From Neodothiora populina (taxonomy: Eukaryota): a stretch of 64,000 nt of DNA. A model generated the notes under the pieces. That model saw only the letters and a program-made list of their open reading frames with translations. It made no database searches and had not been told where the DNA came from. Positions within the stretch are counted from its first letter, which is position 1. Each line of letters begins with the position of its first letter. Shown in pieces: positions 15,018 through 39,074 of the stretch. The position numbers were made by a program, and so were the translations under genes. The DNA lies in NCBI RefSeq assembly GCF_041146345.1, contig NW_027191417.1, positions 496,001 through 560,000 of the forward strand. The letters run 5' to 3'.

Positions 15018-15579
15018 TCAATCCCTCTTCCCAAAAGAGGAAGACGAAGCCGTCAGACCACCCCCAACACCATACCCATACCCTCCTAACCGTCCGCCCC
15101 CACCACCACCACCTTCCATACTCCCCAACCCGCCCAACCGATCTTTGCCATGATTTCTCAACCGTCTAGGCAATTCGACACCTCTAAACCACGCGAAACA
15201 AACCGCGGCCGCGGCGCCCGCGCTCAACGCGCAGTAGACCAACGTGCTGGCGTAGATATGGCCACCGACGCCGGTCCAGCCCGAGGGCAATTGCGTGGTG
15301 GGGTACCAGCGCACGGAAAAGCGCAGAGGCAAGGAGTCGCCGATGACGATGCGCGCCGGCGGGCCCGCTTGGGTCGCCGACGACAGCGAGGAAATCGAAT
15401 ATGCTGTTCCCGCGGCGATGACGCCCGGGTCGGTGGATTTGGGCGCGGCGTGAAGCAGCACGTTTAGGTGCGAGCCGATGTGCAGGTGGCTTAGTTGCAG
15501 CGTGCCGGTCAGCGCTATGATCAGGGGGATGTAGTCTTCTGAGCCCAGGCTGCCTTGGCCTCGGATGGGGTCTGCGGCG

Positions 15580-15671
<92 letters not shown>

Positions 15672-29202: not shown

Positions 29203-29287
29203 GCCCCTTTAGCTCAGTTGGTAGAGCGCGACACTAGTATTCTAATACGAAATGTCGAGGTCGCCAGTTCGACTCTGTCAGGGGGCA
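29203..29287 (+). tRNA. tRNA-Thr(AGT) with a 12-nt intron (29240-29251)
   Basis: GCCCCTT/AGGGGGC acceptor stem, GCTC-AGTTGGTA-GAGC D arm, CGACA/TGTCG anticodon stem with AGT at 29236-29238, T loop TTCGACT; one C-T mismatch in the T stem. Confidence 0.88.
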
Positions 29288-30482
29288 ACGCAAAGCAGTG
29301 CTGCTGGCTGGTAATTTTGTCTTCATGTTTGGTGCCTGTAAACTCGGCATAGCATCATTTCATCAGAATTGAGAAACGAGCCACTATTTTTGCCATATAT
29401 CCGCGGTCACCAGTGAGACGACTTTGCTTGTTCGCTAACAACCCTTGGCGGCAATTGATGGTGTCTCGATCGCCAACCTGAATAAAGCTGTGCATAACTG
29501 TGATCGGATAATAGAGACATTGATGGCAGGGCAGCAACTTGTATATCTGCTCGGCGTGGCTACGCACTCTGCTTGTCTCCTCGAATTCATCAAATTGAGT
29601 AAGGGACCTATCACAATTGGAAGTCTGAACAGCCTCTTGTATGGTGGCGCTCTACCTAGCTTATGTTAGCACGGATGACGAGCATGTGCCAAGCTCGCTT
29701 CTGGGGCGATATTTTGATCATGGTAGACCTGACTTCATACCTTCCAGACTAGGTGATTATACAATAGAACAGGGCAGCACCACAAGCTGTAGAGAATGCC
29801 TTGAGAACTTCTTCGTATACACAGGTAGGGGTGCCCAAGGGCGAGTAGATCCTTGGTTATGATCCATTTTTCGATTGTTTTCACCAAATCTCTGATCCCC
29901 CTTGATTCTTATGAGAGGTGTGTGAAGCAATTCACTGCCCTCACGAAGGTGACCGTAGTATCGAAAGAAAGTCAGCAAATCACCGCCCAACGATGGACTA
30001 AGTGAGAGTGTAAATCAAATGTAAGTAGCTGGCTAGCTACCATACGGAATGGTGGGTAGCAGCTCAGAAGTCCCCATGTCGTAAAGTTTTGCGGCAAAGG
30101 TCTTGCGTCTGCTGGTGCCTGTTGATGTCCTCTGTATTTGGGACACCCTCACAAGACCTCACACAATTGCAACTCCTCACTTACACCTGCTACGCATATA
30201 ATGGACCTTATCTCTCCCTTCTTCTCTTCTTTTCTTCTTCACAAAGTCAACAACAACAGCGATCACAACAACGATAGCAAAAGCAATCATTAACCGCAAT
30301 TTTATTATCATCTTTGATAATAAAAGAACATCATCAGCAGCAGCATCAGCAGCAGCTCAGTCAATACATTCTCTTGCGTCGCCATCGTCGTCGCTTGTTT
30401 TGTGACTTTTTTGTCACCTCATTATTTCAGCACCAATTCTTCTTCCCATTCCCCTTTTCCCTCCCCGTCCTCCACCATCATC

Positions 30483-33115
30483 ATGATCCCAATCGTGTTC
30501 ATTGGGATCCTGTCGGCTCTCGTCGCAATTCTCAGCGTCGGGAACCTTGGACCTGCCAGTTGGCCTGGCTTGCTCCTACAGGCTCTCCCTCAAGGCGGGA
30601 TCTTGCCCCCTCACTCCCCTCTTCCCCTCTCTCTCCCTCTCCCCTACCATCGCCCTCTCTCCCCTCTTCCCCCAAGCTCGGCCGCCTCGTCGACGTCCTC
30701 CATCTTGACTTCTTTCTTTCTGCCCCCAGTCTTGTCATCCCCCTCTTATCCGGATGTCATTGGCTCTGCTGCCTTACCCACAGCACCCTATGTCATTCCC
30801 TCCCTTGAAAGAGAGACCGTCGGGGCTGCATCGTTGTTGCCCTTCTTCCTTTTACTTCTTCTTGTTCTCGCTGCCTTACTGCTCTACGGCATCTCTGCAA
30901 TCTCTCTTCGCTTGGCCGTGGCCAGACCAGTAGCACCAACTGCTGGCTACCAGCGAGAGATCGAAAACCTCAACCTCCGGCTGGCCCAGCAGTGGGGGGT
31001 TATCGAGGGGCTCGTCGCAGATGCCAAAGAAGCCCGCAATGGCAGTGAAGCCTCCAGAGTCCTGCTTGAGTCTTCCCAGGCCAAAGCACTGGAGCTTCAA
31101 CGCAGACTGCCTCGTCTCCAGAAAGATCTGGAGAACAAGACAGAATGCTTGGAGGAGGAGACAAAGGCACACGATCGCACCTTCAAGAAGTTGGAGCGTC
31201 TCGAGCGCCGCCAGAAGCAGGACAACATCAGCAGGCACAATCGCCCTGATGTTCGTCCATCCCTATCCATCTCGATGTACCCCAGTGTATCGACGACCAC
31301 TGTCCAGCCCACTGCCACCGTTCAACCCTCTCTCTCCGTTGCCTCTACCCAGACAGAGCAACCTGAGCCTCTTGCAATGCTCTTGCCAACTTACAGTGTT
31401 GCCTCTGCCTCTACCCAGACAGAGCAACCTGAGCCTCTTGCAACGCTCCTACCAACCTTCGCCGATGCCTCTATTCAGACAGAACATCATGAGCCTCTCG
31501 GGCTTGAAGCTGCTGTCACACAGCTCAACAAGACCCTTGAGCAGCAACAGAAGGAGCTTGGGGAGAAGAGCAAGGTGATCGAGGTCCTTGAGGCCGAGAA
31601 AGCCTCTCATCTCCACAAGCTGGACGGGGAAGATCGCAAGATCAAAGAGCTTTCCACGACGCTGGAAACAGCCAACGATATTGCTCGAGATCATGCTTCC
31701 AAGGCAGCGGGCTCGGAACTTACACTGCAGGCCAAGGACGAGGAGTTGGCTTCATCCAGATCCGCACAGCTGGAGGTAACGCGCGTGTCTTCGGAGACCG
31801 CAATGAGATTACGCCAGCGTGTTGACTTGGTTGAAGCCGTCAATGAGGGGCTCTTGGAGCAGGTCACGCGCGGCCGTCAATCCATAGGGGAGATCCAGAC
31901 TCTGAAGCAAGACAATGAATATCTTCGGAGACAGATCAGATCCCTGGAGGATGCCGTGGCCAGCATCAGCACCATCAATGAGCCCCCTGCGCAGGCTCCT
32001 CAGGAGCAGAGCACCACCTTGGCCGAGGTGCAGACGGAAGGGATCGACCAGGGCGCCGCTGGCGAGTTGCAGGAAGCACTCGCCATGTTCGATCTTGAGG
32101 GTGTGGACTTCAATGCCCTCGGGCCTCTTGAGCTTCCCTCTCTGAATGTGGACGACTATGAAGCGGCCGTCCGTGATCTTGAGAACCCTCTCGTTCAAGC
32201 CTTTCCCAACGTTTCCTCCGTCGAGGAAGCTAACCCCATGGCGCATGACGCATCAACTCTCGATGTGTCAGTCATGGATACAGCTGAGACTGTAGCGGAA
32301 GTTGGTGAGGAGAACGATGAGGACATGGATGCGGAGACACTGCTCCGACACTTCTTCGATCTTGACACAGACGAAGAAGAAGCAGATGTCAACTTCGAAG
32401 ACGTTCCCAACATCGATTTTGCGGCTCAGGTTACAGAGCCACAACAAACCCTCTGCAAGTTCAGTCCTGCTGTACCATTTGAGGTGGTGCCAAATGAGCC
32501 ACAGCAGACTGTCCAAGCATCAAATACCGCTGACTCTTCAGAGGAGCAGCAAATATCCTTCACTTTCGCCCCCCTAGGCCACTACAGCTGCAGCAGGAGT
32601 CCGAAGAGGACGAGGACGAATTTGAAGCAGAATTGGTACGGGAGTTAGAAACGGCAATGGTTTCCCAACGGGAGCATGATGAGATGCTCTCTCGACGGGT
32701 CATCAAGCCACTCCGTGCACGCCGTGTTGCTATCCAACCGGCTGTGCCCGTGCCAACTCCCGCGGGAATGCTGCCACTCAGCGCGCAGGATAGACCCATG
32801 AGAGCTCTCCCTCGACGTCGCCGTGCGATGCAGACCCAAGTGGAGCAGACTGGGTCATCACCCGTGATTCAGCAGTATAATCCCCACTGGGAGAATATTC
32901 CTGAACCGCCGGAGTTGACGCAGGAGGAGCTTGATTTTCTTCTGGATGAGGCACAAGAACTCAGCTCAAAAATGAAAGCTGAGGGAGAGACCACTTCGGT
33001 ACCTCAGAGTCATCCGCCAGATGCTCAAGAGCCCGAGACTGCCCAACAACCTGTTGAGGAAAAGTTGGTGGTCATCGACCCTCAGCTGCTGGCGCTCGAT
33101 AGAGCACAGCAATGA
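30483..33115 (+). CDS. Orphan membrane-anchored coiled-coil protein with TQT repeats and an acidic tail (apparent 1-nt frameshift at C6 run 32569-32574)
   Basis: Intronless ORF of more than 720 codons from ATG 30483. Two hydrophobic segments, heptad-rich E/K/L/Q stretches and an acidic C-terminal half. The acidic composition continues in the -1 frame to TGA 33113-33115. Confidence 0.7.
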
Positions 33116-34045
33116 ATAGAAAGTGTTTGGGCCAACCATCACTGAATACAGAGTGAATGAGCGCGCTCATCATTGATTACTATCAATGTCGCCATCACAT
33201 CTCACACCTACTGAGGCTTGCCATCGCCCAGTAAGGAATACGGAATGGACTTGTGCATCCCTCCATCGCCAAATACCATCCTCGCGGTCACATCTGTTGA
33301 CATGAAGTCACAAGCTTCATCGGTACCTCAGCACCCTTGAACAGAAGCTCAGAAGCCTTCTCAATCCCTTCTTCCAGAGCCCTGACCCGAGGACGAGCAT
33401 GTGACGATCGACCCTTACCTACTGGCTCTTGTCAGAGCTCAGCCATGATTTATGGCTAACGAGCCTGCGAGTTCCATCCAGTCGTCACACAGCTACCTAC
33501 TGGCGCTCTCGAGAGCCCAGGAGATGGTACAAAGCGAATGAGCGCAGCCGATCAACCCGCTATCATCAGACCACACGCTGGTGCTTCACATAGCCCAGCC
33601 ACGATGAGCGTAACTGATCGACTCGCCAACATCAGAAGTACACCCTGGCGCTTCACATAGCCCAGGTCACGAATACATGGTGAACGAGCGCAGTCAGCCA
33701 ACTCGCCGTACATCCCATTCTTGCTGGTGCTCACTATAGCCCAGCAAACGATACACAGTGAATGAATGCAGCCATCACTGTATATTGCCAACCATGCTGT
33801 CACGACGAAATCCTTCCACCGTTCGTCAGATCACAGCAGCTGATGCAATGAGAGTCTACACACTCGTTACTGAGGCACATCTTACCCATCACAGTCACCT
33901 AGTTGTCACACTACATACCTACTGGTAGCCTGACAGAGTCCAACAACAAACACATTGCAGAAGGGCTCAATCACATCCCTAGAGGCAGAAATTATCACCT
34001 CACTCCTGCATGACCTTGCTACTCGCGCTCAACGCAGCACAGCAG
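33089..34045. repeat. Degenerate array of a 21-bp quasi-palindrome CTGGYGCT-N6-AGCMCAG
   Basis: Copies at 33089, 33211, 33422, 33500, 33578, 33645, 33724, 34022. Confidence 0.75.
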
Positions 34046-34164
34046 CAAGTCCAGAGCGAAGGGCCACTCACTGATCACTGAGTGGAATCTCCATTGCGGT
34101 CGTGGTCAACATCCATTCACGTTACACGTGTCACATGCTTCTCATCATATGCAATCACTTTACC

Positions 34165-34800
34165 ATCACATCGCGTGTCTACTGGCGCTAGACATAGCAG
34201 AGTGAGTGAGCATGCTTGTAAAACTACCTCGAGCTCTCCTTCAATACATAGTCCTCCCGACAACTCATCTTGTCGAAGGAACATCAACCCCACATCACAC
34301 CGCATGTCTACTGGCGCTAGACACAGCACAGTAGATGAGCATTCACGCAACACTGTTTCGAACTCTTGTCGGAACACAGTCCTGGCGACTCATCTCGTCG
34401 ATATAACACCAACTACTATCACACCGCATGTCTATTAGCACTAGACATAGCAGAACGAACGAGCATACATGCGACATTATGTCGAGCTCTTCGTCAAAAC
34501 ACAGTCCTCCGAACAAGTCATCTTGTCGAAGAAACATCAAATACCATCACACCGCATGTCTACTGGCATCAGACACAGCAGAGTGAATTAGCATACATGC
34601 AACACTATTTTAATTTCTTCATTAGAACGCAGTCTTTCAAACAACTCGTCCTGTCGAAGAAACATCAAACAAGATCACACCGCATATCTACTGGCACCAG
34701 AAATAGCAGAGAGGGTTAGCATACATGCAACACTGTTTTGAGCTATGCTCTAGATTCACAGTCCTCTCGATAACTCATCTCATCTTGTCGAAGGAAAACC
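34165..34800. repeat. Tandem repeat of 5 x ~127 bp
   Basis: Units start near 34165, 34291, 34417, 34545 and 34674 (ATCACACCGCATGTCTACTGGCGCTAGACACAGCA...CAGTCCTC..CTCATCTTGTCGAAG). Confidence 0.9.
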
Positions 34801-35764
34801 AAAAACCACCTAAAAACCCAAAAAAGGTCAAAACAAACAAAACAATCACCAAAAAAGTTGAAAAGGAAGATAGGGGATCGAGTGGAGGAAATTTTACCGC
34901 TGGTTTGCCATGAAGGCATCCACATACCAGCACTGGACAGAGCCTAGCAATGGAGGCAGAGCACGCGTTCACATGATCAACTCGTGGTCACAACACAAAT
35001 CTCCAAACAGCCTCAGTTGTCTAAGAGTGATAAAATCATGAGCAATTGATGATTCACAACAAATGCTGAGTGAGCGAGCATACAAACGCACCCAGACACA
35101 TGCTACATCGCCACCACAATATGATACCCTCGCTGGCTTGGCTTGTCGGACGCGAAGGCAACAGCAGCATCTCCGCCCCTCGTCATCAGCAAAATGAAGA
35201 GAAACCTACAAACAAGGCTTTCCTTTCTATGACAACAGAGGGACTACACAGTGAGGTGCATTCAAAAGTATCACTGCGGAGCAAGAAATACCAAGTGAGC
35301 GAGCACACACACTCGTCGCTGAACATGACCATCACATCGTCACAATTCAATGCTCCAGGCGACTCAACTTGTCAGAATCGAAATCAGAGTCGACCGAACG
35401 AGAACCCAAAGCTCAATAGCAATTATCCCTCGTTCAGACAGTGCAAGCGGCTTCAGATGTCTATGACACATAATCAGCCTTGCACATTGAAGGTTCCTCA
35501 CGCTCTTGGCTCCTTTTTCTGCGACCAAATCCATTGAATAGGCCGCGTCGAAACAAGACACGTTTCCCTCAACATTAAACAATTGGGGAATCAACAAATC
35601 AAGACGCGTTGGACAGCTATATGTCTCTTCAAGAGCTATCACCAACCTTACACCAAAAGCGTGTTGCCTTACAACCTACTTGGCCCCTGATGCAGTGCCG
35701 AAACCAAGAATCGGACACATTGCACGATCTCTCTCCATGATCAATCAATTGTGAAATCAAGAAT

Positions 35765-36462
35765 TGGAGAAGGGACGCGCGGCTTCACGTCTCTTGCTGA
35801 GCCATCATCAGTCTTACGCCGAAAGGTTTCCTCTCCATGGAACCAGACAATGAGGGTTAGGAAAGGGGTTGGACACCTGGCTTCACGTGTCTGTCATAGA
35901 CATATCAGCCTTTCACCAAAAGAGTCCCTCCCCTTGGCCCTCAAAATCTTACCAGAGGCACGAGCAGTGTCAGAGGACCAAACATCCGGTCTCTCACTAC
36001 AATCGTATAGCAAGGGTTAGGAAAGGGGTCGGGCGGCTTCATGTGTCTACAAAAGACATATCACCAGCCTTCCACCTAAAAGGCCCCTCCCCTTGGCCCC
36101 CAAGCTCACGCCCATGACCAAAGAAAGAAAAAGGTCAAACGCAATCAGAAGGTCTTTCCACGAGACACCTCCACATGGATATGGGCAATGACGGGTTAGT
36201 AAAGGGGTTAGGCGGCTTCACGTGTCTACAACAGACATATCACCAGCCTTCCACCGAAAAGGTCTCTCCCCTAGGCCCCTCAGCCCGCGAACAAGAAAAG
36301 CGACCCAAAAAGGTCACCAACACACCAGACCACGTTCAACAAGTGGAAAAAGACTTGAGGAAGTAAGGGAACAGAAAAGGGGTTGGCCGGCTTCACGTGT
36401 CTGCAAGAACAGACATATCATCAGCCTCCACCAAAAAGGTCCCTCTCCTTCCCTGAACCCTC
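35765..36462 (-). repeat. Array of five ~90-nt structured units with unrelated spacers (putative ncRNA motif)
   Basis: Plus-strand core GGCTTCAYGT at 35781, 35879, 36035, 36214 and 36389, each followed by a hairpin, ATCA(YCA)GCC and ACC-A-rich-GGT. Confidence 0.85.
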
Positions 36463-36779
36463 GCAAAGCGAAAAATCGAAGAACCCCACCGGCCATTGAT
36501 CAAAGATCTCTGTGTCGATGAACAAAGGGGACACAATCGATTCACTTTGCAAAAAGAAAAAGAAAAAAAAACCCCCCGATCAACCAAGAAGATCGGTGAA
36601 CATCAAAACGTTCAAGACAAAGAAAATGAGTAGATAGTACTATATAGTCGAACGATGGAACGGTGGACGAGCGATGGTATTGCAAAGGGATCTTGACGTT
36701 GATGGTTTTCCTTTTTTCTTTTGCGGTCTTGTCTTCCTTGCTTGCTTTTTTTTCTTTCTTCTGTCTTTTTTTTCTCCTT

Positions 36780-37400
36780 TCTCGCTGTAATTTTTCTCTC
36801 ACCAGTTGTTTCTTCTCACTGGGTTTTCTTATTTCGCTGCATTTCTTCTATTTCCTGGTTCTGCTCTTTCTTTTGTCATTTTTCTCCTCTCTCACTGTAT
36901 CTTTTCTCTGACCAGTTGTTTCTTCTCACTGGGTTTTCTCTCTTCGTTGTATCCTTTCTCTCACCTGTCGTCTCCTCTTACTGGGTTTTCTCCTTTGGCC
37001 GTATCTCTTTTCTTACCAGTTTTCTCTTTCCTCCTGGTTTTCCATTTTTCTCACTGTACTTTTCTTCTCACCAGTTGTTTCTTCTCACTGGGTTCTCTCT
37101 TCTTGCTGTATCCTTTTCTCTTACCAGTTGTCTTTTCTCACTGGATCTTCTCTCCTCGCTGTATCTTTCTCTTGCTGGTTCATTCTCTTCTCGCTGTATT
37201 TTCTCTTTTCACCGGTCATGCTCTTCCTGATGTATTTCTCTTCTTGTCGGTTATCTCTCTTATTACTGTATCCCTTTCCTCGTCGGTTGTCTCTTCTTTT
37301 GCTGTACTTTCTCTCCTCACCGGTCGTCTCTCTTTCTTCTGCATCTCTGTTCTGGCTGTTTATCTACCTTTTCACGGCTTGTCTCTTTCTACTGCTTGGT
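36780..37400. repeat. Pyrimidine-rich ~52-bp tandem repeat (three ~17-bp subunits) that decays rightwards
   Basis: ACCAGT/ACCTGT at 36801, 36911, 36963, 37015, 37070, 37123; unit CTGTA-Yn-ACCAGTTGTTTCTTCTCACTGGG-Yn. Confidence 0.85.
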
Positions 37401-37926
37401 TCTTTTCTTGTTGCTGCTGCTGCTTCTCCCTCTCTTCTCATGGCTTGTCTTCTACTACTTGTCTCTCTTCACTCTGGCTCTCCAGTTGTTTGTTTTCAAA
37501 TTCAGTTTCATCATTTATTTCTCTCTCAAGTCTCTATTATATTCCTCAGATCGCATAGCATGGGATCGTGGCGGTTTTTGTGGTTCTTGTTTTCGGGTAG
37601 TCTGTATGCCGATTGATTGAAGGCGGACGCTTGTGGAGCTTCTCGATGCCTGCTGTATATACTCTGAGTCTAGCTACCAGAGCAGACTTAGCCGAGATCA
37701 TGTATTTGCTTGAAGTCTAGCTACTAGAGCAGACTTGATCGAGGACGTTGATTCCTCCGGCCTATTGAGCTTGATCAACGAAATGGATTCTTCTGCCAAT
37801 CTATCCGACTTGATCCATTGAGTTGTTGCTGTGATATACAAGTTCTGGATTTCGACGATACGAACCTCCTACAAGTTCTGATCCTGTACACCGCGACCAA
37901 AACCTAGCGACATCTCCACTAGACCA

Positions 37927-39074
37927 TCATGTCTCCAACCCTCCCACAGCAGTCCCCTTCCTCCCTTCCTCCCTCTCATCCTCAATCCTCATCCTCAACC
38001 TTACAGCCTCCCACCCTCTCCTCACAACATCACTCATAACCCCACCTCCCAAGCGCCTGCAAGCCTCCGCAACCGGCACCAAAGCACTCTGATACAGCAA
38101 TTCCTCCTCGTCGACGCCCGTACCTTCATATTTCCTAGGTTCATAAACCGACTCACTACCATCTACAGAAGAAGAAATTGAATCGAGCGCGATCCGCTGC
38201 CTCAGCGTCATATTCCTCGGAAACCGAGGCGGGGGAATATAGCGCCTCCTACTCCCTGAGTCCGACGAAGCGCTCTTCTCATCAACGCCCGACGTCTGAA
38301 GAGAAGAAGAAGCAAGGTCCGAAGAGAGATTCAGCGCGTCCTCGTCGTCCTTACAGAGAGTCTCGGCCACGTACCAGTGCAGGATATACTGTGCGGAGCG
38401 CGACTGCGGCACGAGCTGGGTCCAGAGGGGCTCGGTGTCGAAGGAGTGGATCGCGGCTTCTGGGGAGAGCTCGTCCGGGTAGGGTTGTCTGTGGGGGATC
38501 GGCAGGGGGAGGAGGCGGTTGCGGTAGCCGGACTTTTGGGGCATCAGCTCGGGCGTCTGGGCTGTGGGTTTGAGGAAGATGCAAGACATGGGATTGACGG
38601 CGTGGGTTTATGGGATTAGAACAAGACTCGAAGGTACTGTTTTTGGGCAGGGGTATATGTTCTGCAGTGCTTTACGATGGCGGGAATGCAAACTGGTTTG
38701 AGAAAATGAAGAATAGTGGCAAGACTACTCCTTTGACATTCACAAAACCAGACACAACCCTCACGACTACAACAACATATCTAAAAGAGAAATGGAAAAG
38801 AAGATAAGAAAAAGCCGCTCACCTCCTCAAACCCCTCCCTCACAGCAGCGCACCCGGCCTCCTCACTAGCATTTCTCCGTCCCTTCGGCAAGAACCAGTA
38901 CCCATCTCTCGAATGCCAGCAGAGTACCACACGCTCACTGGCGAGGTGGAAAGTGGCTACTCCGGCGCCTATGGTCAAGTTCTCACTTGCGAAGTTGGCG
39001 TATACTGGGGCGCTTGAGTGGGGATGAGATGGTTTGTGCGGTTTGTTGTTATGTGGTAGGCTTGAGGATGACAT
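37927..39074 (-). CDS. Nudix hydrolase
   Basis: Spliced Nudix box WFLPKG-RRNAS-E-EAGCAAV-REGFEE|SG across intron 38533-38822; downstream HRQP, TEPLW, QYILHWYVAET. Confidence 0.85.

Follow-up and report, generated by a model that had tools for sequence, protein, structure and literature searches.

The stretch of DNA analysed here (hereafter the window) comprises 64 kb of the fungus Neodothiora populina (contig NW_027191417.1, 496,001-560,000), and all coordinates given below are positions within it. This report deals with array B, a tandem repeat seen in this one genome, whose units are predicted to fold as RNA into a three-way junction with a kink-turn (K-turn) at the base of one arm, and which we tentatively interpret as a family of K-turn RNA modules. 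Array B lies within a stretch of about 5 kb that has no convincing open reading frame (ORF) and is flanked by two convergent ORFs, one on the plus strand (30402-32648) and one on the minus strand (37927-38589). The same gene-free gap carries three other sets of repeats (33538-33665, 34161-34744 and 36770-37335). The window is eukaryotic and encodes, among others, Ku80, a FIT/SCS3 protein and a cytochrome P450. The nearest named relatives of the FIT protein are found in Dothideomycetes (Aureobasidium, 68%; Zalaria, 69%) and its top match overall is 79% identical, and thus the host is a Dothideomycete without a close sequenced relative.

Units of array B

Array B consists of seven head-to-tail copies (U1-U7) of a core of approximately 87 nt, or a unit of approximately 90 nt, which occupy positions 35432-36458 on the minus strand. 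A previous sequence-only reading of this DNA had described five such units. Their place, their strand and their head-to-tail arrangement were confirmed, and the core spacings of 98, 156, 179 and 175 nt were reproduced by the repeat search (families D11 and D9). The count was too low, since two further units were found at 35598-35683 and 35432-35518; the repeat search had already given faint signals of both, near 35629 and 35461 (families D4 and D10), which alignment confirmed as units. The earlier observation was therefore largely right, with the qualification that the array has seven units, four of which are intact. A coding function for array B was considered and rejected, because the spacings are not multiples of three and the ORFs found there are short and out of register.

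To compare the units on one scale, a covariance model (R1) was built from all seven of them, so that their scores of 57-98 bits are high by construction, the units being the training set. U1 (36372-36458; 78.2 bits) is closed by a purine/pyrimidine stem and carries two hairpins, a short one with a U loop and one with the K-turn. U2 (36197-36284; 91.8 bits) is 88% identical to U3 (36018-36105; 98 bits), and both also contain a K-turn hairpin. In U4 (35858-35946; 78.6 bits) the core is kept and the 3-nt bulge of the K-turn is deleted, leaving alignment columns 50-52 gapped. The remaining three units are more divergent, with identities of 63-70% to the other units and to each other. U5 (35764-35849; 75.9 bits) is about 66% identical to U1-U4 and keeps CUGAUGAU and CGUGAAGCC. 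U6 (35598-35683; 71.1 bits) is decayed and has lost the 3' GA of the K-turn, AUAUAGCU standing in place of GUGAAGCC, and U7 (35432-35518; 57.1 bits) is decayed as well, the first G of its tandem G.A having changed to U (GAUUAU). With filters off, R1 detected no further copy in the 64-kb window, the next best candidate scoring 11.2 bits (E 0.94). A possible eighth remnant, very degenerate and limited to the 3' half of the hairpin, lies at 35007-35028 on the minus strand; it belongs to repeat family D10 (68% to its reference) and is missed by R1.

It should be noted that the heptamer GGGTTAG, or CUAACCC on the minus strand, recurs in U2-U4 (plus-strand positions 35854, 36014, 36193 and 36205) and resembles both the telomere repeat and the fungal branch point. 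A telomere- or template-like role of CUAACCC was not adopted: the recurrence was judged to reflect the shared ancestry of three paralogues, no telomere arrays are present in the window, and no telomerase RNA was found there with Rfam.

Conservation of cores and spacers

A clear difference was observed between the cores and the spacers of the first four units. Per alignment column, identity among the cores of U1-U4 is 0.74-0.88 (z 19-27), whereas that of their spacers (0.47-0.53) is no higher than in shuffled sequences (0.47-0.51 ± 0.03). Insertions and deletions follow the same pattern, with 26-38 gap columns in the spacers versus 0-16 in the cores. Nevertheless, the previous description of the spacers as unrelated is not entirely right, since residual homology was detected in the form of short blocks in the full-period alignment of Q2 with Q3 and of a similarity between the spacers S56 and S67 (z 5.8). 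Because homologous blocks persist in the spacers, array B must have arisen via tandem duplication of a period of about 175 nt, core and spacer being equally old. The core of U1-U4 thus either evolves several-fold slower than the spacer or is homogenised. Even divergence over the whole period, which is a feature of a neutral minisatellite, fails for U1-U4 and holds for U6/U7 and for array A, the neighbouring repeat at 34161-34744.

Predicted structure of the core

When applied to the minus strand of the aligned units, RNAalifold independently gave the three-way junction that had been proposed from the letters (22 pairs, -11.61 kcal/mol). The closing stem of the consensus fold has two parts and joins a G/A-rich 5' arm to a C/U-rich 3' arm; it encloses a U-loop hairpin of 3 bp and a long hairpin made up of a 4-bp GGCU/AGCC stem and a 6-bp distal helix. 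The loops of both hairpins vary in sequence, and that of the long hairpin also varies in length, between 5 and 8 nt. Standard pairs fill 86.9% of the 153 cells of the consensus structure, compared with 41-55% when the partners are slid. In column shuffles, pairing amounted to 81.8 ± 1.5% and the observed value was reached by 1 of 500, and the covariation score (0.245, versus 0.176 in shuffles) was reached by 3 of 500, although related sequences may exceed column shuffles without any structure. Two clean double changes could be identified, a G-C to C-G exchange in the hairpin, common to U5 and U6, and an A-U to U-A exchange in the closing stem of U5. Taken as a whole, the repetition of array B clearly exceeds chance, and its structure does so only modestly.

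The minus strand appeared to be favoured only modestly by the models. The consensus structure contains 20 G.U against 6 A.C cells among the 153, so that 86.9% of cells are paired on the minus strand versus about 78% on the plus strand, where RNAalifold gave 17 pairs at -9.5 kcal/mol and most of the closing stem and the small hairpin were lost. These values support the claim made previously that the pairing works on the minus strand; that it works only there is contradicted by the single units, which fold about equally well on the plus strand. Moreover, the minus strand is G+U-rich across the gene-free gap (33300-36600), and part of the asymmetry is therefore compositional. Thermodynamics picks no strand.

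The K-turn motif

In U1-U3, the minus-strand sequence of the long hairpin begins with the GGCU stem, followed by an unpaired G and R-U (R, purine) that together form a 3-nt bulge, by G.A and A.G, by U.U, by a small irregular internal loop and by the 6-bp helix; the 3' strand runs back via U-G-A into AGCC. A strict descriptor of the K-turn hairpin of the box C/D type had three matches in 128 kb (both strands of the window), all of them in the array: 36389-36426 in U1 (GGCU stem, GAU bulge, GA/GA, U.U, a stem of 6-7 bp and AGCC), 36214-36248 in U2 and 36035-36069 in U3, each on the minus strand. In shuffled sequences the same descriptor had a mean of 0.17 matches per window, and at least one match was found in 30 of 200. 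The strict motif is therefore uncommon by chance, yet not rare genome-wide, and its three matches share one ancestor.

The GGCU/AGCC stem is 96.3% paired over the seven units, and the GA/GA letters are present in U1-U5, whereas U6 has lost the 3' strand and U7 carries U for G. U5 retains both strands of the K-turn exactly, with one A.C mismatch in the stem. The bulge behaves as previously described, being deleted in U4 and reading GAU or GGU in the other four units then listed, which is evident both in the sequence and in the alignment. Since its bulge is missing, U4 has no kink motif, and what is left there is an internal loop with tandem G.A. Consequently, the K-turn that had been assigned to the units can be maintained for U1-U3, and for U5 with its one A.C pair, and has to be withdrawn for U4, which has no bulge, and for U6 and U7, in each of which a G.A pair is lost.

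Searches for relatives

No RNA family resembling array B could be identified in Rfam: a scan of 34000-38000 with 4227 families gave nothing even at E<=10, and a gathering-threshold scan of the whole window gave no match in array B. Metagenome contigs yielded no match to a specific pattern of the hairpin and 35 single matches to a looser K-turn pattern, all of which were scored with R1. The best of these (30.7 bits) appears, on inspection, to be a GC-rich protein-coding stretch, the others scored at most 16.8 bits, and all 35 loci were treated as chance matches. A search by protein-level proxy, in which the translated plus-strand ORF over U3-U4 was used to look for relatives, returned no candidate. 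Among sequencing runs, the locus was listed for no RNA run and for three runs at contig level, one of which may be the source of this DNA; these gave DNA-type contigs and small identical pieces without joints, a result that has no bearing on expression.

A tandem K-turn array in fungi was not found in the literature either, where two surveys of structured RNA candidates (PMC5640933; PMC8216456) were covered at the level of their main text. These surveys report intergenic and intronic candidates in Pezizomycotina, and in the main text of both, the words k-turn, kink and tandem are absent, as is any tandem K-turn array. Among the candidates is an 'atypical snoRNA' (snoRNA, small nucleolar RNA) whose C and D boxes are approximate and whose guide regions show complementarity to rRNA; 81 examples of it in 52 species are given (PMC5640933; PMC8216456). 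This RNA is widespread, whereas array B has no detected relative.

Comparison with known K-turn RNAs and tandem RNAs

The consensus boxes of C/D RNAs are RUGAUGA, close to the 5' end, and CUGA, close to the 3' end, and a terminal stem of 4-5 bp joins them (PMC5640933; PMC8216456; 10.64898/2026.07.28.740266). In the register of the K-turn, array B offers RUGAUAU as the strand resembling box C (5 of 7 positions) and GUGA as that resembling box D (3 of 4 positions), CUGA itself occurring in U7 alone. The 4-bp stem with a single unpaired nucleotide agrees with the description of C/D RNAs in a mouse preprint (10.64898/2026.07.28.740266). That preprint reports box C/D-like RNAs of 20-50 nt associated with Fibrillarin and Snu13 and raises the idea that cryptic k-turns serve to bind Snu13 and not as guides. 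These tiSNORDs share with array B the C/D-like letters 20-50 nt apart that are able to form a K-turn, in some cases a terminal or external stem, and poor conservation between species. They are, however, dispersed and mostly intronic, were defined by sequenced RNA ends together with immunoprecipitation, and lie outside any conserved three-way junction, whereas array B is fungal and tandem, conserves another ~50 nt around the hairpin, and is known from its DNA sequence.

The mammalian orphan C/D arrays SNORD115 and SNORD116 (PMC3413130; PMC12429941) are similar to array B in their head-to-tail arrangement, in a conserved K-turn core of about 90 nt next to diverging remaining sequence, and in having no obvious rRNA target. 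They differ in having antisense elements and the full set of boxes (C, D, C' and D') and in lying each in an intron of a repeated host gene. In array B, the seven copies are guide-less, the boxes are imperfect (RUGAUAU and GUGA) and only 27-30 nt apart, and splice signals occur only beside U3 and U4.

With the K-turns bound by proteins of the L7Ae/Snu13 family and with k-junctions (PMC10573300), array B has in common the canonical stem, the 3-nt bulge, the letters of the tandem G.A/A.G, the non-canonical stem and also the three-way junction. A k-junction has its third helix emerging directly from the K-turn, on the strand that lacks the bulge, whereas the junction of array B is 4 bp away, and so the motif is an ordinary K-turn hairpin on a junction arm. 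Satellites containing type III hammerhead ribozymes (PMC3088659) likewise combine tandem repeats with a three-way junction in which CUGAUGA, a helix, GAA and the same tandem G.A pairs are found. Array B has neither the geometry of their junction nor the A15.1-U16.1 pair nor the cleavage-site triplet, and most copies deviate in the core letters.

Interpretation of array B

On the basis of its sequence, array B may represent a tandem family of K-turn RNA modules that are specific to this lineage, C/D-like and guide-less. We favour this interpretation, tentatively and at somewhat less than an even chance. In the model that we infer, the minus strand would be transcribed by RNA polymerase II as part of a long noncoding RNA that reads through the 5-kb gene-free gap. 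A TATATA motif at 36641-36646 (minus strand), read from the sequence about 185 nt upstream of U1 and followed by a long T-rich run (36548-36576), may mark with that run the promoter region of a transcript entering array B. U1, U2, U3 and U5 would be intact modules, U4 would have lost the kink, and U6 and U7 would be decaying pseudo-units. Each intact module would fold into the three-way junction described above, with the G/A-rich 5' arm paired to the C/U-rich 3' arm, the small U-loop hairpin and the long hairpin, the base of which would form a box C/D-type K-turn (4-bp stem, an unpaired nucleotide plus R-U, tandem G.A/A.G and U.U). Snu13 would bind this K-turn co-transcriptionally and nucleate a small ribonucleoprotein (RNP), and the RNP would protect the module from the exonucleases that degrade the spacers. 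The outcome would be either stable guide-less small RNAs or a long RNA studded with Snu13. A much bolder version, which we regard as unlikely, is that U1-U3 and U5 are genes for a new class of guide-less fungal small RNAs of about 90 nt, several of them made from each polymerase II transcript, whose K-turn arm recruits Snu13 and perhaps more snoRNP proteins in a role other than methylation, such as the buffering of Snu13 or the seeding of nuclear RNPs; the neighbouring arrays would then be sister modules of one long RNA.

The earlier proposal of an undescribed structured RNA with a K-turn is plausible and partly supported, by the absence of any match in Rfam, by the conserved cores of U1-U4 and by a strict K-turn that occurs in the array alone; the weakness of compensatory change and the failure to find a homologue outside this genome speak against it. 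Indeed, a considerable part of the results weighs against the interpretation as K-turn RNA modules. The covariation term of RNAalifold was +0.69, that is, no net covariation support, and the four double-change pairs (2.7 expected) were reached by 117 of 500 shuffles. The variation among U1-U4 fits an RNA fold, with 37 of 44 paired columns invariant versus 18 of 38 unpaired ones (Fisher p 0.0008), but this comparison is partly circular, as the structure was derived from the same sequences. Changed pairs in the divergent units still pair in 15 of 33 cases (5 of 10 in U5, 8 of 14 in U6 and 2 of 9 in U7). When units were folded singly on the minus strand, only U1 was clearly below shuffles (minimum free energy -38.5 kcal/mol, z -4.0), the other six ranging from -1.4 to +0.5, and the mean z was -0.99 on the minus and -1.26 on the plus strand. 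The spacers folded as well as the cores, with z down to -3.4. Sliding windows gave no better z on the minus than on the plus strand, and throughout the gap either strand folded better than its shuffles (mean z -0.7 to -1.4), whereas two control regions did not. Because the spacers and both strands of the gap fold well, foldability is a property of the DNA of this region in general. The K-turn is missing from U4, U6 and U7, three of the seven units, and a loose descriptor of the K-turn hairpin, with 27 matches in the window versus 17.65 in shuffles, shows such hairpins to be common by chance. Lastly, no homologue of array B was found outside this genome by the metagenome scans or the protein proxy, and hence there is no cross-species covariation.

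Many of these observations would be expected if array B were a non-functional, hairpin-rich minisatellite, an explanation that we consider somewhat unlikely in itself and that stands close to a tie with the K-turn RNA interpretation. The 5-kb gap, including arrays A and B and the 66-nt repeats at 33538-33665, would then have been built by repeated tandem duplication of a single ancestor bearing a palindrome, the K-turn letters would have been present in that ancestor by chance and passed on to its copies, and the higher identity of the U1-U4 cores would result from short-tract gene conversion or recombination between these palindromic cores rather than from selection. This agrees with the presence in the same gap of three repeat families on one strand that share AUGUCU...AGACA followed by GUGA, with the interleaving of A-type and B-type pieces at 35.0-35.3 kb, with the folding of both gap strands beyond shuffles, unlike the two control regions, and of spacers as well as cores, with the lack of anything similar in Rfam or metagenome contigs, and with the weak covariation and the decay of U5-U7 without core-specific protection. 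In U6/U7, at the downstream end of the array, the core (0.54) is less identical than the spacer (0.60), so that core-specific conservation is absent there, which is a further point against the K-turn RNA modules; the previous statement that array B is unlike a simple satellite thus applies to U1-U4, with cores at 0.74-0.88 and spacers at the shuffled level, and not to U6/U7. On the other hand, a neutral array should diverge evenly, and in U1-U4 cores that are 74-88% identical alternate with spacers at random level in which the indels are crowded. Variation within the cores avoids the stems, and it would have to be explained separately why conversion tracts should end at either edge of the core in four units. 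Selection might also act on double-stranded DNA, the core being a composite platform for transcription or chromatin factors in an array of cis-elements, although this seems quite improbable. The cores contain CACGTGA (U1, U2 and U4), CACATGA (U3) or GACGTGA (U5) as well as AGGGG and CCCCT in both arms, letters that we take to be factor-site motifs, the first of the E-box type; there is no thermodynamic strand preference, and the array is flanked by two convergent genes, the 5 kb between them being free of other genes. However, these motif matches are post hoc, and the ~87 bp that are conserved go well beyond the needs of a few factor sites. It would also be awkward for a dimeric site that the arms of the long hairpin stay complementary while its loop shifts between 5 and 8 nt, and arms about 65 nt apart remain complementary mostly through G.U on one strand.

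The remaining explanations, namely mobile elements, canonical snoRNAs and ribozymes, are very improbable even when taken jointly. Repeated insertion of small foldback elements (similar to miniature inverted-repeat transposable elements) at one locus, which by itself is highly improbable, would account for the imperfect inverted arms AAGGGGAGGG and CCCCUUUCCU that bound the cores and for the unrelated sequences between cores. Against it, all seven units have the same orientation and quasi-regular spacing, homology at a period of ~175 nt remains in the spacers, no target-site duplications were seen on inspection beside U2-U4, and no dispersed copy is present in the other 63 kb. Besides, the arms pair only if G.U is allowed, so that at the DNA level they do not qualify as inverted repeats. 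Least probable of all is that array B is either a group of box C/D snoRNAs of the canonical, methylation-guiding kind or a satellite of tandem self-cleaving ribozymes similar to the hammerhead. UGAUGA and UGA letters flanked by a 4-bp stem do occur, and in U1 and U5 the letters CUGAUGA...GAA, which we take to be the hammerhead core motif, lie inside the three-way junction with the helix order of type III, but no snoRNA or ribozyme family of Rfam matched at E<=10. Canonical C/D snoRNAs were rejected since the boxes are 27-30 nt apart within a hairpin that is entirely self-paired and leaves no space for a guide or for D'/C' boxes; a scan for a C box, a D box and a terminal stem gave nothing on the minus strand and, on the plus strand, a single weak candidate whose stem has 4 bp. 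An intron-hosted arrangement was likewise discarded, given that GUGAGC or GUAAGA upstream and CUAAC downstream accompany U3 and U4 and are missing from the other units. As to the hammerhead, CUGAUGA is found only in U1 and U5, U2 and U3 reading CUGGUGA and U4 having a deletion; GAAG rather than GAAA follows the hairpin, the 15.1/16.1 pair is impossible, no pair closes helix III at the junction, and inspection revealed a 2x3 internal loop between the core and helix II. The competing helix CCUUUU/GGAAGG abutting CUGAUGA, which a hammerhead-like fold needs, is 78% paired, compared with 96.3% for the K-turn stem. The catalytic option that had been suggested for array B is therefore not supported, its hammerhead-like letters lying outside a hammerhead junction and no ribozyme of Rfam matching them.

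If the cores are expressed and bind Snu13, array B would be a fungal case of tandemly amplified guide-less box C/D-like RNPs, and it would follow that selection and amplification can turn K-turn mini-RNAs like those of the mouse preprint into a gene family. Its four intact copies stand next to three that carry natural mutations, and as a compact natural system it would also lend itself to the question of what a K-turn RNP does without guiding anything. Should the cores turn out not to be expressed, the array would still be a clean case of a palindromic repeat core evolving several-fold slower than its spacers, which would need a DNA-level explanation.

Other repeats and features of the window

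Array A (34161-34744, minus strand) contains 4.6 copies of a 128-nt unit with 82% column identity over the whole unit. RNAalifold predicted four hairpins for it, with a covariation term of -1.4 and five double-change pairs. Its long hairpin, AUGUCUA...UAGACAU followed by GUGUGAUGG, resembles the hairpin of array B followed by GUGAAGCC, and judging from this likeness the two arrays may have a common origin. In the interval from U7 to array A, the B-type remnant at 35007-35028 is interleaved with A-type copies at 35057-35087 and 35282-35312 (families D10 and D12), which suggests one evolving repeat zone rather than separate arrays. Further hairpins in the region 33400-34000, in which the 66-nt repeats are located, share CCAGUAGGUA...GUGUGAC, and one copy there has GUGAAGC and CUGAUGAUAGC in an order reversed relative to array B.

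Array C (36770-37335) has a period of 52 nt and about eight copies and shows a strong purine bias on the minus strand (AT skew about -0.7). It repeats GGUGAG/GGUAAG and UACAG, which resemble splice signals yet are too closely spaced to bound introns. Outside the gap, a tRNA gene at 29203-29287 (85 nt, long enough for an intron) was the sole match in the Rfam gathering scan of the window. In addition, the 748-aa ORF at 30402-32648 contains a 66-nt in-frame repeat (31336-31498), and a perfect (GTT)31 microsatellite is present at 15579-15671.

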